Assembly: GCA_019058365.1 (NCBI GenBank)
Contig: JAHPZE010000051.1
Location: forward strand, 1 to 18,923
Source: Promethearchaeota archaeon
GTDB taxonomy: Archaea > Asgardarchaeota > Lokiarchaeia > Sigyniarchaeales > SOKP01
Length of the DNA: 18,923 bases
Direction of reading: 5' to 3'
The position numbers and the translations under genes are program-made. Below are positions 1,363-13,805 of this stretch, piece after piece; position 1 is the stretch's first letter; every line of letters begins with the position of its first letter. The notes below the pieces were generated by a model. It had not been told where the DNA came from. It did not search any database and saw only the letters and a program-made list of their open reading frames with translations.

Positions 1363-1815
1363 TTAGAATAATGTTAAAAATGGTTTAACTTTCTCTCTTC
1401 CTTCGGCATTCTCAATACACTCTAGAATTCTTTTAGATAGATCCTTTTTTTTTTGAAAATATATTCTCATTATATCATCTAAAGATTTATAGGGATATCT
1501 TTCCACTAACGCAAGATCTCTTCTTGAACACCCACTTTGTCGCATACAACAATAAGAAAGTGAACCAAAACATACAATTTCAGAATCCCAATTATTTTCT
1601 TTCGAAAATTCCTCCTTAATTCGGATAAATTCGTCAGTTCCAAGACCTAGATCCTTCAATCTTTCATCTCTTCTGCATTTAAAACCATATGTAAGCGAAT
1701 ATCCTGGTTTACAACAAAATGTTAAAGCACGATAATCTCCCCCCATGCATATTGGTACCGGGGCATTATTTTCCCATCCTGGAAGGTTCCTAATTTTATC
1801 TTCTTCTAACTTCAA
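1363..1815 (-). CDS. Methanogenesis marker 9 domain-containing Cys-rich protein (probable Fe-S/metal binding)
   Basis: WENNAPVPICMGGDYRALTFCCKP and CFGSLSYCC...C motifs fit the marker-9 domain pattern. TTG start; no in-frame ATG further upstream before a stop. Confidence 0.8.
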   Translation of the reverse strand: MKLEEDKIRNLPGWENNAPVPICMGGDYRALTFCCKPGYSLTYGFKCRRDERLKDLGLGTDEFIRIKEEFSKENNWDSEIVCFGSLSYCCMRQSGCSRRDLALVERYPYKSLDDIMRIYFQKKKDLSKRILECIENAEGREKVKPFLTLF

Positions 1816-1868
1816 ATTATTCTCATATAGCCTAAATTTGTAATAACCCTAAATAAATATAATAAGAG

Positions 1869-2031
1869 GGCTCGGTACGGGAATTATTCCGAAAAGAATA
1901 TGTTTCTTTCCGTTTGAACCCGTCTGTCCCCGGTTGTAAGGATATTTTCAAACCTCTAGGGATTCACAGTCCCCAATATTAGACGTTATAGCTTATATAA
2001 CCATAACTCTAACCACTATACGAACCGAGCC
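1869..2031 (-). tRNA. tRNA-His(GUG) with encoded G-1 and three non-canonical BHB introns (2008-1979, 1955-1926, 1913-1884); CCA not encoded
   Basis: Removing three 30-nt segments gives a 73-nt cloverleaf: G-1 GCTCGGT TC GTAT AGTGGTTA GTAT T GGGGA CTGTGAA TCCCT AGAG ACGGG TTCAATT CCCGT ACCGAGC C73. The 7-bp acceptor stem is perfect, the anticodon GTG is at 1967-1965, and G-1:C73 is the His identity element. Confidence 0.92.
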
Positions 2032-2091
2032 ATAGTTTTTTTTTTATAATAATAAATCTAAATGTTTACTTATAAAAAAATTTAATTATCC

Positions 2092-2664
2092 CTATTGGTT
2101 TTCACTTACCACGGAAATTATATATTTTAGACATTGATTAATTGCACTATCAAGTTTTCCAGAATTATCAATAATTATGTCGGCTTCTTGAAATAATTGA
2201 TAACTTTTTGCTCGTTCTATTCTTTCTTCTAATAATTCTGATCCTTCTCTTCCTCGATCTTTTAAACGTTTTATAGTTGTCTCAAGAGGCACATAAATGA
2301 AAATTACTTTAAGATTTTTATAAATATCTCGTGTTTTTTTCACAATTGACCGACTTACATTAACAATAACGGGGTGCCCCTCTTTAAGAAAATCTTCAAT
2401 TGTTATAGGAATTCCATAGGATAAACGGTAAATTTGCCATTTGAAGGCAAATTCTCCTTTGTTCTCCATTTTTTTGAATTCTTCTGGAGATATTGAAAAG
2501 TTTTTTTCAGTTTCAGAAGGTGGTCTCGTAATAAATCTTTTCGGAGCATAAATCTGCTTCAAATACGAGGGATATGCTTCTAACACTCCTGAAATTATTG
2601 AATCTTTGCCAGAACCAGAGTTTCCTACAACCAAAAATAATGTACCAGTGAACTTTTTTGACAT
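2092..2664 (-). CDS. phnN: Ribose 1,5-bisphosphate phosphokinase PhnN-like (guanylate-kinase fold)
   Basis: P-loop VVGNSGSGKDS, RFITRP, FAFKW...LSYGIP, VIVNVSR and RLKDRGRE are typical PhnN motifs. Confidence 0.8.
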   Translation of the reverse strand: MSKKFTGTLFLVVGNSGSGKDSIISGVLEAYPSYLKQIYAPKRFITRPPSETEKNFSISPEEFKKMENKGEFAFKWQIYRLSYGIPITIEDFLKEGHPVIVNVSRSIVKKTRDIYKNLKVIFIYVPLETTIKRLKDRGREGSELLEERIERAKSYQLFQEADIIIDNSGKLDSAINQCLKYIISVVSENQ

Positions 2665-9492: not shown

Positions 9493-10380
9493 TTAATTAA
9501 AAATTTGATATGGAGAATTATCTTTCTCCCAATTTTTTAAACCGTGATATAATTGAGTTAGTTGGAAGAATCGAAATTCATATGAAAGTCTTAAGATAGA
9601 TTCTATTTTTTTCCTAGTAATTTTAGCCAGATTATATCCAAAAATGTATTTTAAACCTATTAATAATAATTCTGTTATATCATGGCCACAACACACGTTC
9701 CAGGGGTCATTAACTTTAGTTTGCAAGTTATGTGCTTCATTTTTTATTTTAACATCTGATTCTTTGTTTCCTGGAGAATTTTTGATTAGTTCTGACACAA
9801 ATTTGTTATAATCAATTGTCAAGTTCTTTAATTTTATGAAATTCTTATATATTAAATCTTGAAATTTTAACTTCCAATTATTATTTATTGATGCCCATCT
9901 TACATATCCGATTAGTAAAGAATTTTCAATTAATATTTCTCTTAACTTTTTAGACATTTTTTGTTCTAATTTTTTCAATTCTAGTTCATCTGTAAATTCC
10001 CTCAAAAAATTTTCAAAAGCAAATGATGAAACTATCATTGTTTCAATATCATGATTATCTGTATAGAACATATTAACCGAAAATTTCTTCACTTTATTTA
10101 AATGATCAAAATCGGCATCAAGTACTAATACTATTCCAGCCTCTTTCCTGTTTTCTAAAATCTTAAATACTTGAGTTGCAAAACTTTTAGTAGGGATGGC
10201 TTTTACACGGCATTTATTATTATTTGTAAATTTTTTAAAAAGTTTAACATCTGAATTCCCTTCAACAATCAAATAAGTACCATTGTATAATGATCTACTC
10301 ATGCTTATGGCATTTGCATAGGAATATGGGCTTTTAGGTTTAACCACTATTATCACTCTAGCCTGACTGTAAGATCCCAT
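9493..10380 (-). CDS. DUF4435 / TOPRIM-like nuclease (AriB-like component of a PARIS-like system)
   Basis: LIVEGNSD (TOPRIM Glu), DADFD (DxD), HDIETM and CCGHD motifs. The true start is probably GTG at 10356 (GTGA overlap with the ATPase stop) or 10347. Confidence 0.8.
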   Translation of the reverse strand: MGSYSQARVIIVVKPKSPYSYANAISMSRSLYNGTYLIVEGNSDVKLFKKFTNNNKCRVKAIPTKSFATQVFKILENRKEAGIVLVLDADFDHLNKVKKFSVNMFYTDNHDIETMIVSSFAFENFLREFTDELELKKLEQKMSKKLREILIENSLLIGYVRWASINNNWKLKFQDLIYKNFIKLKNLTIDYNKFVSELIKNSPGNKESDVKIKNEAHNLQTKVNDPWNVCCGHDITELLLIGLKYIFGYNLAKITRKKIESILRLSYEFRFFQLTQLYHGLKNWEKDNSPYQIFN

Positions 10381-11684
10381 TGTTCATTTATTATCTGAGG
10401 AGAATGGGTAGCAACGAGGATATCTAAACTACTAAGTTTAGCTATATCCAAAAGATTTTCTAAAAACACTTCTTGCCATTCAACATGGAAAGATATTTCA
10501 GGCTCATCAATTAGTATTAAAAAATTAGGTTTTGCATTAAAAAGCATTTCATATAATAAAACAATCTCGTGTTTTTCACCTGAAGATAAATCCTCCAAAT
10601 CCAATCTTCTTCCATTTTCAGTTGTTACTACAAATCCATCTTGTTTATTAATTTTTAACTCCTTATTTAAAAATCTTTTATTTATTATATTCATAAATAA
10701 ATTGATCTTTTCAAACAATTCATCGAAAGTTGCTAATTTATCTTCAGTATCATTAATATATACATTTAATACATACACTGTATTATCATCAATCTTTTCA
10801 GATTTAATATCAGTTATACTACTTTCCTTATCTAATAAACCAACATCCATAAGTTTTTTTCTCTTCTCTTCCAAATATGTTAATCTTAAACGAATTTCCT
10901 CCTCACCTAAAGTTGAAACAGGTCTTTCTCTTACTACTCTTCCGGGAAATGATCTATCAAGTGACTGTGATAATTCGGCATATTCTGTTAATGTTTTCTG
11001 AATCAATTCCGTTAAATTTTCAGAATACATTTTTACCGAGGATTTTAGCATATATCTTTTTTTATATCTAGGTTTTTTTATATCCTCTTTGACCATTAAC
11101 CTTTGTGTCTTTATGAATACAACTTTAAATTCATTTATAAGATCCAAAAACCATTCTTCTTTTCTTTCTTTCTTAGGATGAAATAATAATCTATATTCAT
11201 GATTTTGTATAATTTCGTTATATGGACGAATTTCATCTGTTGGTTCATGTAACCACAAATCTCTATTTGGATCAAATAATAAATAATCATATTTACTCAT
11301 TATATATCTTTTAAATCTTGGATCGTGCTTTAGTTCCATAATTGAAGGACTATATGAAATTTTGAAAGGTTTTTTTTTTCCATTTTCCATAGAAAAGTTC
11401 AACGTAATGTCTTGAAAATCTTTTTCCTCCTCTTTTTTTGTTGTTTCTTTTCTTTCAATCCTAAGTGATTCATTATTATCAAATTTTAACAAAAAAGTTT
11501 TAAACGGAATTTTAAAGAATGTATATTGATCATTATTGAAAAGTGCATCAATCATTTTCAATATGGTTGTCTTACCATATCCGTTTGGTCCGTGAATAAT
11601 TGTTATTCTCTCATTAAGATGAAATGGAATTGTATATGTAAACATCCCAAAAAGTTCTTCTATATAGATTTCTTTAATTCGCAT
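10353..11684 (-). CDS. ABC-type (AAA_21/AAA_15) ATPase (AriA-like component of a PARIS-like system)
   Basis: Walker A GPNGYGKT, signature LSSGEK, Walker B LILIDEPE, H-loop ATHSP, long helical insert; overlaps the DUF4435 gene. Confidence 0.88.
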   Translation of the reverse strand: MRIKEIYIEELFGMFTYTIPFHLNERITIIHGPNGYGKTTILKMIDALFNNDQYTFFKIPFKTFLLKFDNNESLRIERKETTKKEEEKDFQDITLNFSMENGKKKPFKISYSPSIMELKHDPRFKRYIMSKYDYLLFDPNRDLWLHEPTDEIRPYNEIIQNHEYRLLFHPKKERKEEWFLDLINEFKVVFIKTQRLMVKEDIKKPRYKKRYMLKSSVKMYSENLTELIQKTLTEYAELSQSLDRSFPGRVVRERPVSTLGEEEIRLRLTYLEEKRKKLMDVGLLDKESSITDIKSEKIDDNTVYVLNVYINDTEDKLATFDELFEKINLFMNIINKRFLNKELKINKQDGFVVTTENGRRLDLEDLSSGEKHEIVLLYEMLFNAKPNFLILIDEPEISFHVEWQEVFLENLLDIAKLSSLDILVATHSPQIINEQWDLTVRLE

Positions 11685-11963: not shown

Positions 11964-13805
11964 TTATCTCGATTTCTTAATTGATTGACGATGCCAATAA
12001 TGGGATGGTGGTCTCTTAATTTCCCATTCATCACAAAGATCGACCAAGATTCGCCGATAAATACCATATTTTTCACATATTTCTTTGATTTGCTTCATCC
12101 AAACTAATTTTTCAAGTTCTTCTTTAGTGATTTGATTCTTCAACGTTTCTTTTAATGGGACTCTAAAAATTTTTCTCTTTCGTTCCAAACTAAACTTATA
12201 ATTATCCATCATCTCATTAAATAATTTACCCCCTAGACTAAGATACCAAGATTTTCCATCTTTATCAGGGTAAACATCATGAGGAACTTTAAATTTCTCT
12301 TTTATCTGATCCAAAATCTTTTTACTACCTAAGTGAAACGTGGTAGTGCCTTCTTTTCCATCACCATCAAAAAAACCTAAAAGAAACGCTAAAGCCAATT
12401 CACGAGAAACTAAAGACGGAAGTTGAGTATTCTTTAATTTGGCTGGTCTATAACCAAGATCTAATAAATTTTTTTTCACTTGCGAACATTTAAATCTTAT
12501 ACGAACATACGTCTTAATTCCTGATTTTGTTTTTTTATTATTCTCACTCTTATAGGCAGAATTTAACCCAATTGCTTGAATATATCTGTCTACTAATATC
12601 TCATCTTTTTTGCTTAACTCAAGGCTTATTTCCGACCTTTGTCCAAGATATACCTCTGCCCATAAAACCCCTAACCAATATGCTTTTTCTTTATTATTTA
12701 TATCTTCAAAATAATTCACTTGAAGATTAGGATGATAATTTAATACTTTTAATTCTGAAGAAATTGGCAAATCTGTATTTGAATCTCTATAAGCATCAAT
12801 TATATTGAGAGCATTTTCTCCTTTAATACCAAGAGTTGAATTTATGTTTTTTTCCCATTTTTGCAATTCATCTAAGGCAACTTTAAAATCCGGGTTAGAT
12901 CTTAAAGTACGTCTAATTCTATCTAATCTTCTTGAATATCTACAAATAATCAGGCTTAATTTACGCCAAGGTAAACTTCCATTATGAAACATTTTTATTT
13001 TACGACCTTCAATTTTTAAATATGGAGGAATAATCCCTTCAATTTCGTTCCTTAATGCATTAAGAAGATCATTAGTAGTATTAATTGATTTTGAATTATA
13101 CCAATAAGAATAGAAATTTTTCAAATCTTCCCGTATTACATATTGAAAGTATGGAATGTTCTTCATTTCCCACATATCCGAAACTAACCTAAATACAATT
13201 TTTTGTAACCATATTATAGATGTTAGAAAATGTGTTCGATAATCTTGATTTAACTCAATTTTTTTTTGTAATAATCTTAATGAATTATCAAATTCTTCAA
13301 TAGAGATATTATGTAAATTTTCTAAGAAACTTCTACCTATTCGTTTACTTAATATAGGTTTTAATTTGGTTGCAAAATAAGTGAGAATAGATTGGTTTAT
13401 ACTTATACGACGGACACTAACATTATTATCTTGTTCCCATTCTCTGATAAAAGTATAGATTAAACGGGAAAATACAATAATTAAATTTTCTTTGAATATT
13501 TGAGGAAAATCCTTGTCCTCCCAAATCATATTCCGAGAATACTTTCTAGATTTTGTTAACTTGCCAATTCTTTTACCAATTGATTCTTTATTTTTCTTAA
13601 TATTATCTTTAAGATTCGAGGTTTTTTTATGAATATTTTTATTAAATTCTTCTTGAGTGTCAATATCATCAAATTTAATTTCTATTCCACAGAATTCACA
13701 GATTATAGATTCTTTATTTTCAAGTATTCTGCGAAGGATATCCTGTTGAAACTCCCCACCACAATATTTACAGCAATTTGAAGGGCTCTTGCCATTTTCG
13801 AACAT
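11964..13805 (-). CDS. Free-standing LAGLIDADG-family protein with N-terminal Zn ribbon and C-terminal HTH-like domain
   Basis: CKYC...CEFC at the N-terminus; two LAGLIDADG-like helices KAYWLGVLWAEVY (degenerate) and LAFLLGFFDGDG; C-terminal ITKEELEKLVW...PPSHYW. Confidence 0.8.
   Translation of the reverse strand: MFENGKSPSNCCKYCGGEFQQDILRRILENKESIICEFCGIEIKFDDIDTQEEFNKNIHKKTSNLKDNIKKNKESIGKRIGKLTKSRKYSRNMIWEDKDFPQIFKENLIIVFSRLIYTFIREWEQDNNVSVRRISINQSILTYFATKLKPILSKRIGRSFLENLHNISIEEFDNSLRLLQKKIELNQDYRTHFLTSIIWLQKIVFRLVSDMWEMKNIPYFQYVIREDLKNFYSYWYNSKSINTTNDLLNALRNEIEGIIPPYLKIEGRKIKMFHNGSLPWRKLSLIICRYSRRLDRIRRTLRSNPDFKVALDELQKWEKNINSTLGIKGENALNIIDAYRDSNTDLPISSELKVLNYHPNLQVNYFEDINNKEKAYWLGVLWAEVYLGQRSEISLELSKKDEILVDRYIQAIGLNSAYKSENNKKTKSGIKTYVRIRFKCSQVKKNLLDLGYRPAKLKNTQLPSLVSRELALAFLLGFFDGDGKEGTTTFHLGSKKILDQIKEKFKVPHDVYPDKDGKSWYLSLGGKLFNEMMDNYKFSLERKRKIFRVPLKETLKNQITKEELEKLVWMKQIKEICEKYGIYRRILVDLCDEWEIKRPPSHYWHRQSIKKSR

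Follow-up and report, generated by a model that had tools for sequence, protein, structure and literature searches.

The window, a stretch of 18,923 nt corresponding to contig C32 of the assembly of an Asgard archaeon, carries on its minus strand a tRNA-His(GUG) gene that is interrupted by three 30-nt introns at non-canonical sites, one each in the D arm, the variable loop, and the T loop. We infer that the gene is functional and that its transcript is spliced three times by the endonuclease EndA together with RtcB, with a probability of roughly 0.88, and the main uncertainty of this reading concerns the recognition of the D-arm intron. The host assembly comprises 4.74 Mb in 54 contigs with a GC content of 29.5% and has an estimated completeness of 100% and an estimated contamination of 6.6%. 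The closest public relatives of the guanylate kinase encoded next to the tRNA gene were found in Promethearchaeia/Promethearchaeota metagenome-assembled genomes (MAGs), i.e., Lokiarchaeia-type Asgard archaea.

The tRNA-His(GUG) gene and its detection

The precursor gene spans 163 nt from G-1 to C73 (1869..2031, minus strand, as are all features of the gene), as delimited by its sequence and by orthologs in synteny, and its two ends form an 8-bp acceptor stem that includes the G-1:C73 pair (G at 2031, C at 1869). Exon 1 (2009..2031) comprises G-1, the 5' strand of the acceptor stem, U8-C9, the 5' strand of the D stem, the D-loop, and G22, and is followed at site 22/23 of the D arm by intron 1 (1979..2008), which forms an 8-bp hairpin and has the degenerate central helix GGUU/GUCU. 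Exon 2 (1956..1978) holds the 3' strand of the D stem, nucleotide 26, the complete anticodon arm with GUG, and A44-G45, while intron 2 (1926..1955) at site 45/46 of the variable loop has the central helix CCCU/GGGG and a motif of the HBh' type. Exon 3 (1914..1925) contains A46-G48, the 5' strand of the T stem, and U54-A58, and is separated by intron 3 (1884..1913), at site 58/59 of the T loop and with a central helix GUUC/GAAU and a 9-bp inner hairpin, from exon 4 (1869..1883), which completes the gene with U59-U60, the 3' strands of the T and acceptor stems, and C73.

Removal of the three introns (2008-1979, 1955-1926, and 1913-1884) left 73 nt that ARAGORN called as tRNA-His(gtg) with an acceptor stem of 8 bp, the D stem GUAU/GUAU, the anticodon stem GGGGA/UCCCU, and the T stem ACGGG/CCCGU. 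This call upheld the identification in the earlier note, made from the DNA letters alone, of a tRNA-His(GUG) with a perfect acceptor stem including G-1:C73. The spliced cloverleaf displays a 7-nt anticodon loop with U33 and the anticodon GUG, and the anticodon arm is unbroken in the gene; the intact loop means that there is no 37/38 intron, and the numbering proposed for the three inserts (22/23, 45/46, and 58/59, with none at 37/38) was correct. The description of the locus as a GC-richer island also held, with a GC content of 0.39 across 1876-2025 versus 0.22-0.28 in the flanks. A split or permuted tRNA gene of the Nanoarchaeum, Caldivirga, or Cyanidioschyzon type was considered and rejected, as all four exons are colinear on one strand within the 163 nt of a single locus.

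The CCA end is not encoded, and C73 is followed directly by CTC and then by T-rich sequence. An A/T-rich element (AAATTTTTTTAKA type; 2069..2083, minus strand) lies 38-52 nt upstream of G-1 and is kept in nearly all orthologs. From its conserved position it is a candidate BRE/TATA promoter, and the T-rich 3' trailer (1850..1868, minus strand) is a candidate termination region. The gene is flanked upstream by a guanylate kinase (2092..2664, minus strand; Pfam PF00625) and downstream by a conserved 150-aa ORF without a Pfam match (1363..1815, minus strand), which served as synteny anchors. Further along the window and on the same strand, an AAA_15/AAA_21 ATPase identified with Pfam (10353-11684) overlaps a 295-aa ORF without a Pfam match (9493-10380), and a 613-aa ORF (11964-13805) had no Pfam match at E 1e-4.

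The expectation that standard annotation would miss this gene was borne out. ARAGORN reported no tRNA in the unspliced window, Rfam reported nothing there at gathering thresholds, and the locus was also missed in the genome-wide Rfam tRNA search; because both programs miss the gene, the host genome would appear to lack tRNA-His. The E-value mode of Rfam was tried on the orthologs and yielded sub-threshold mis-hits to tRNA-Sec in single-intron alleles only, with no match to the window gene. No second tRNA-His was detected by ARAGORN with introns allowed or by Rfam in the 54-contig MAG with its 6.6% contamination. Four GC-rich anticodon arms with a YUGUGRN loop were present in the genome and only that on C32 was enclosed by a G-1...C73 stem, while a search of the genome for the conserved His exon words with one mismatch allowed gave no further tRNA-like context. 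One tRNA-His locus each was likewise found in the two other genomes that carry intron 1 (G005 and G066). On the question of another tRNA-His, which had been raised with the initial identification, these searches point to this locus as the sole recognisable copy in the assembly, a further copy on an unassembled piece being conceivable.

Intron alleles of the orthologous genes

Orthologs were gathered by BLAST of the 163 nt against genomes of the same genus and by synteny searches with the guanylate kinase, and each of the resulting 41 genes was aligned to the 73-nt mature sequence to place its inserts. The deduced mature tRNA was the same or nearly the same across the 41 loci and identical in most same-genus genomes, with exon 1 being 100% identical in most same-genus orthologs and G-1 and C73 kept in 41/41. 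Enough flanking DNA was available for 36 distinct loci: the gene was located between the guanylate kinase and the 150-aa ORF in 29 of these, and all 36 had the 150-aa ORF directly after tRNA-His.

The number of inserts per tRNA-His gene ranged from zero to three, with differing subsets among the orthologs, and so constant a mature sequence beside such varied inserts goes well beyond chance. L023/G046 has a gene that lacks the 22/23 insert alone and matches the window gene at each of the other 133 nt, so that the junction GGUUAG|UAUU is fixed unambiguously. Both the 22/23 and the 45/46 inserts are missing from L008 and L009, and the 45/46 intron is also absent from L011 among others. L011-L014 are without all three introns and have at 32/33 an insert of 26 or 30 nt instead, the 58/59 intron is absent from L011-L016 and others, and genes of the G012 type carry the 45/46 insert alone. 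Finally, the gene of L049/G047 is intron-free, and its tRNA-His was called directly by ARAGORN. Removal of each of the three inserts restored the conserved tRNA and matched the intron-less alleles; for introns 2 and 3, the junctions CCCUAG|AGACGG and GUUCAA|UUCCCG retain a 2-nt sliding ambiguity that is settled by the BHB register. The junctions proposed before any comparison was made were thereby found to be exact, as judged from sister alleles lacking each intron. Compensatory changes occurred in distant relatives at pair 3:70 (U-A to C-G) and in the T stem (ACGGG/CCCGU to GGGGG/CCCCC). Given these changes and the insert-free alleles, the inserts have the behaviour expected of introns in a gene that is under purifying selection.

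Splicing motifs, splicing enzymes, and the D-arm intron

Splicing motifs were sought by a BHB scan of all cut-site pairs around each insert, with a 4-bp central helix (H), 3-nt bulges, and an inner helix (h'). The top-scoring BHB of the region coincided with the comparative junction for both intron 2 and intron 3 (H 4/4, h' 4/4), in agreement with the motifs drawn for them in the earlier note. The H of intron 3 is formed by G53-C56 with the intron sequence GRRY and was paired in 15/15 distinct orthologous sequences; three of its four pairs vary, solely by one-sided G-C/G-U or U-A/U-G exchanges, and both-sided changes were found in 6/9 pairs of its h'. In the corresponding controls, 0/500 shuffles reached the observed values and slid registers paired at 44-60% versus 95%. 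The H of intron 2 was invariant in 13 sequences and hence uninformative for covariation, and an A-U to G-C change was identified at the base of its h'. The outer helix amounts to 1 bp in intron 2, where it is essentially absent, and to 2 bp in intron 3 in the strict register, and because these outer helices are short, the motifs of both introns are relaxed and HBh'-like.

Both central helices draw on exon strands that the cloverleaf also uses. The H of intron 2 takes up C40-U43 from the 3' strand of the anticodon stem with a predicted pairing probability of ~0.42, and that of intron 3 competes with the T stem for G53-C56 with a predicted probability of ~0.1. The final six bases of intron 2 (GGGGAC; 1926-1931, minus strand) are the same as those of the anticodon stem's 5' strand together with C32, and intron 2 therefore competes with the anticodon stem for C40-U43. 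In the predicted folds, the cloverleaf and the three motifs cannot all form simultaneously in the precursor, and splicing would proceed through local alternative folds.

Two PF01974 paralogues were identified in the genome, in the regions C26:34764-34988 and C12:101662-101910. EndA alpha (198 aa) matched the catalytic subunit of Aeropyrum pernix EndA (3p1z_B; E 1e-35) and contains the Tyr-His-Lys triad as well as a Lys aligned with K44 of the Crenarchaea-specific (L1) loop, while EndA beta (206 aa) resembles EndA of M. jannaschii with the catalytic His replaced by Ser; RtcB is also encoded. The (alpha-beta)2 EndA with the L1 loop occurs in Asgard and TACK archaea and has been tied to a broad substrate range (Kaneta et al., PMC5829648). 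The protein sequences thus support a host EndA of the two-subunit, broad-specificity type that is predicted to be able to cut relaxed motifs, as the earlier note had anticipated from the inserts themselves.

In the proposed mechanism, the single functional tRNA-His(GUG) gene would give rise to a precursor of ~163 nt plus leader and trailer, from which RNase P would trim the leader and leave the encoded G-1. The heterotetrameric (alpha-beta)2 EndA would cut two nt into each 3-nt bulge of every intron, RtcB would join the four exons and probably circularise the introns, and the CCA enzyme would add the 3' end. Because the anticodon stem would lend its 3' strand to the H of intron 2 and the T arm its G53-C56 to that of intron 3, the local alternative folds would have to precede the cloverleaf. 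The relaxed motif of intron 1 presumably relies on the broad specificity associated with the L1/Crenarchaea-specific loop of EndA alpha.

The motif of intron 1 had been flagged as weak from the start. Its H (GGUU/GUCU) has 3/4 pairs, comprising one G-C and two G-U pairs beside a U-U mismatch, and in G005 and G066 the same helix (GGUU/GCUU) is reduced to three G-U pairs and a mismatch. In the partition-function fold, the pairing probability of the window H was ~0, and it is predicted to be out-competed by a rival helix of U20-G23 with C50-A53 that extends the intron 1 hairpin by 4 bp (P >0.95; ~4.7 kcal/mol better). Other BHB registers were tried and discarded, as every option with an H of 4/4 breaks the cloverleaf or gives the wrong length. 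The unrelated and independent 22/23 introns of L043 and L028 have central helices of 4/4.

The distribution of intron 1 was placed on a maximum-likelihood tree of the guanylate kinase and 150-aa ORF proteins (340 columns, 29 syntenic loci), which replaced a flanking-DNA tree that held non-syntenic rows with long branches. The window grouped with G005 and G066 (95/95), with G046 as sister (100/99), and the next outgroups are without the 22/23 intron. Among the three carriers, 5/30 positions of intron 1 vary, including two changes inside h' that keep pairing, compared with 1/60 positions in introns 2 and 3 and 0/73 in the exons, and their guanylate kinase proteins are 89-92% identical (8-11% diverged). 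By parsimony, the absence of the intron from G046 and the next outgroups places its gain on the stem of the three-species clade, and from these sequences intron 1 looks like a comparatively recent gain common to the three species. A bolder proposal, which we consider unlikely but worth stating, is that the 22/23 intron is not only recent but tolerated and presumably spliced without a canonical central helix, the shared 30-nt length reflecting a length-measuring or mobile-element mechanism and not BHB selection alone. If true, the window genome (G000) and G046 would offer a before/after snapshot of the birth of a tRNA intron, and one taken from the closest prokaryotic relatives of eukaryotes.

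Three other explanations of the inserts were weighed against triple splicing. Each insert being a self-contained hairpin, they might be expansion hairpins that are kept in an unusually long mature tRNA-His. However, they break the D stem, the variable loop, and the T loop, the last between A58 and U59. Interactions between the D-loop and the T-loop hold the L-shape of a tRNA together, and retained inserts would disrupt these interactions because all three elements are interrupted. Close relatives with an identical mature sequence moreover lack the inserts in every combination, including the intron-free allele, and the pairing of the central helix with the exon is conserved, as a splicing motif requires, which leaves retention in the mature tRNA scarcely credible. 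A small chance is given to the 30-nt inserts being removed or inserted without a canonical BHB, through a hairpin-length "ruler" of the Asgard EndA or as a mobile 30-nt element, with the BHB-like features of introns 2 and 3 being secondary. This would account for three unrelated introns of exactly 30 nt, for the dominance of 30 ± 1 nt among the tRNA-His introns of the genus, for the narrow span of the single-intron tRNA genes of the genome (100-103 nt), and for the youngest intron having the poorest BHB. It is opposed by the failure to find a donor or second intron copy in the genome or its relatives, by the H of introns 2 and 3, which are conserved or co-vary as BHB recognition predicts, and by the full central helices of the independent 22/23 introns in L043 and L028.

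The features that set intron 1 apart could also mark a decaying or poorly functional copy, in which introns 2 and 3 are spliced and the 22/23 insert, for want of a proper BHB, is not spliced efficiently, so that His decoding would require low-level splicing or another tRNA-His gene that escaped detection. Such decay would fit an H with a single Watson-Crick pair, the thermodynamic preference for the non-BHB hairpin extension, and the variability of intron 1 relative to its companions in the three genomes. Yet no second tRNA-His was found in the host genome and a single locus occurs in each of G005 and G066, the exons are invariant across three diverged species, the two h' substitutions keep pairing or improve it, and EndA alpha bears the loop known to permit relaxed motifs (PMC5829648); a decaying copy is accordingly quite improbable, and splicing of all three introns remains the preferred reading.

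Relation to known systems and intron turnover

The earlier note regarded Thermoproteales as the best-known source of triple-intron tRNAs, a view that published Asgard examples have made outdated (PMC11291895; 10.64898/2026.10.13.758758). Introns are present in 92-95% of the tRNA genes of Atabeyarchaeia and Freyarchaeia, often several per gene and at non-canonical sites (Valentin-Alvarado et al., 2024, PMC11291895). A 2026 preprint on Asgard archaea counted as many as five inserts in a single tRNA gene, reported repeated gains and no general route by which inserts arrive, and described D-arm inserts that tRNAscan-SE overlooks and a widespread two-paralogue EndA (10.64898/2026.10.13.758758). The gene described here shares with that report the Asgard host, several short non-canonical introns per gene, D-arm inserts missed by finders, a two-paralogue EndA, introns repeatedly gained and lost among close relatives, and the lack of detectable donors. 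It differs in its host, a Lokiarchaeia/Promethearchaeia genus that is not named in the preprint text, in the tight intron length of 30 nt against a median of 22-23 nt, and in a genome of mostly single-intron tRNA genes with ~4 that have roughly three introns' worth of insert by a rough span count.

The multi-intron tRNAs of Thermoproteales (Sugahara 2008; Fujishima 2010; cited in 10.64898/2026.10.13.758758 and PMC4090602) are, as far as these citing accounts describe them, similar in having up to three BHB introns per gene, non-canonical positions, and an (alpha-beta)2 EndA with the Crenarchaea-specific (L1) loop. In the same accounts, many of the introns form sequence families across tRNA genes that are read as transposition, whereas no related copies were found here, and the present host is a low-GC (29.5%) Asgard archaeon and not a crenarchaeon. 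The chemistry and geometry predicted here match those of the canonical 37/38 intron of the strict hBHBh' type, in which a central helix of 4 bp is flanked by two bulges of 3 nt and the cut follows the second nucleotide of the bulge, and intron 3 can be drawn as a T-arm analogue of the canonical intron that is one nt off the ideal 59/60 site. The canonical intron differs from all three in its place within the anticodon loop; the outer helices are moreover reduced or missing in the present gene, and intron 1 has a degenerate H.

Multi-intron Asgard tRNA genes thus being already published, this tRNA-His is a well-documented further example and not a new kind of system; it stands out by the narrow length range, around 30 nt, of introns that are unrelated to each other, by its clean allelic series, and by a young D-arm intron with a poor motif. 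One syntenic gene with zero to three introns in seven site classes across 29 related genomes constitutes an unusually clean comparative series, in which two sister genes are distinguished solely by a 30-nt D-arm intron whose splicing motif is poor. The series bears on what has been called the central question, that of the motifs which tRNA introns need and of the way in which they arrive (10.64898/2026.10.13.758758), and its alleles are concrete substrates for EndA cleavage work.

Over the tree of the 29 related genomes and their syntenic loci, the seven intron-site classes required at least 27 gains or losses. Close neighbours on the flank trees, L004 and L056 among others, can carry entirely different intron sets in tRNA-His, e.g., 45/46 plus 58/59 versus 15/16 plus 32/33, and such differing sets suggest either a very fast turnover or the replacement of whole alleles by recombination between lineages. 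All three window introns are 30 nt long and unrelated to each other in sequence. The ortholog inserts at 15/16, 22/23, 32/33, 45/46, 58/59, and 59/60 are mostly of 30 nt as well, and the remaining lengths are 26, 27, 29, 31, 33, and 35 nt. Neither a donor nor another copy of any of the three introns emerged from a blastn-short search of their own genome, in which the best matches were of 14-17 nt at E >=0.016, and the best weak matches in relatives fell in ordinary AT-rich or coding sequence and not in hairpin inserts. A match of 22/30 to intron 3 on contig C39 (~206.9 kb) was considered as a mini-intron of a protein gene and dismissed as chance, as the opposite strand is an unbroken HdrA-like frame. 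A T-loop intron family with a tRNA-Ser(GGA)-like gene (21/30 identity) was judged not significant, given that ~8 positions are forced by exon pairing and that the match was the best of many.

The other tRNA genes of the genome were surveyed with a span scan based on the T arm and acceptor stem with one T-loop insert allowed, which gives approximate spans and not curated intron counts. By this rough measure, 39 plausible tRNA genes were identified and ~28/39 have inserts: nine genes span 71-74 nt, two 82-84 nt, 18 100-117 nt, six 131-145 nt, and four 151-175 nt. The single-intron genes cluster at 100-103 nt. Most tRNA genes therefore appear to have one insert of ~30 nt, with tRNA-His belonging to the roughly four longest genes. 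Several tRNA-like genes of 142-175 nt, e.g., Leu(UAA)-like and Ile(UAU)-like, were unreported by ARAGORN and Rfam and probably carry two to three inserts each; with rc positions counted on the reverse-complemented contig, these genes are located on C12 (rc 26976-27120), C34 (rc 305297-305471 and + 23030-23180), and C35 (rc 201127-201287 and rc 284515-284656).
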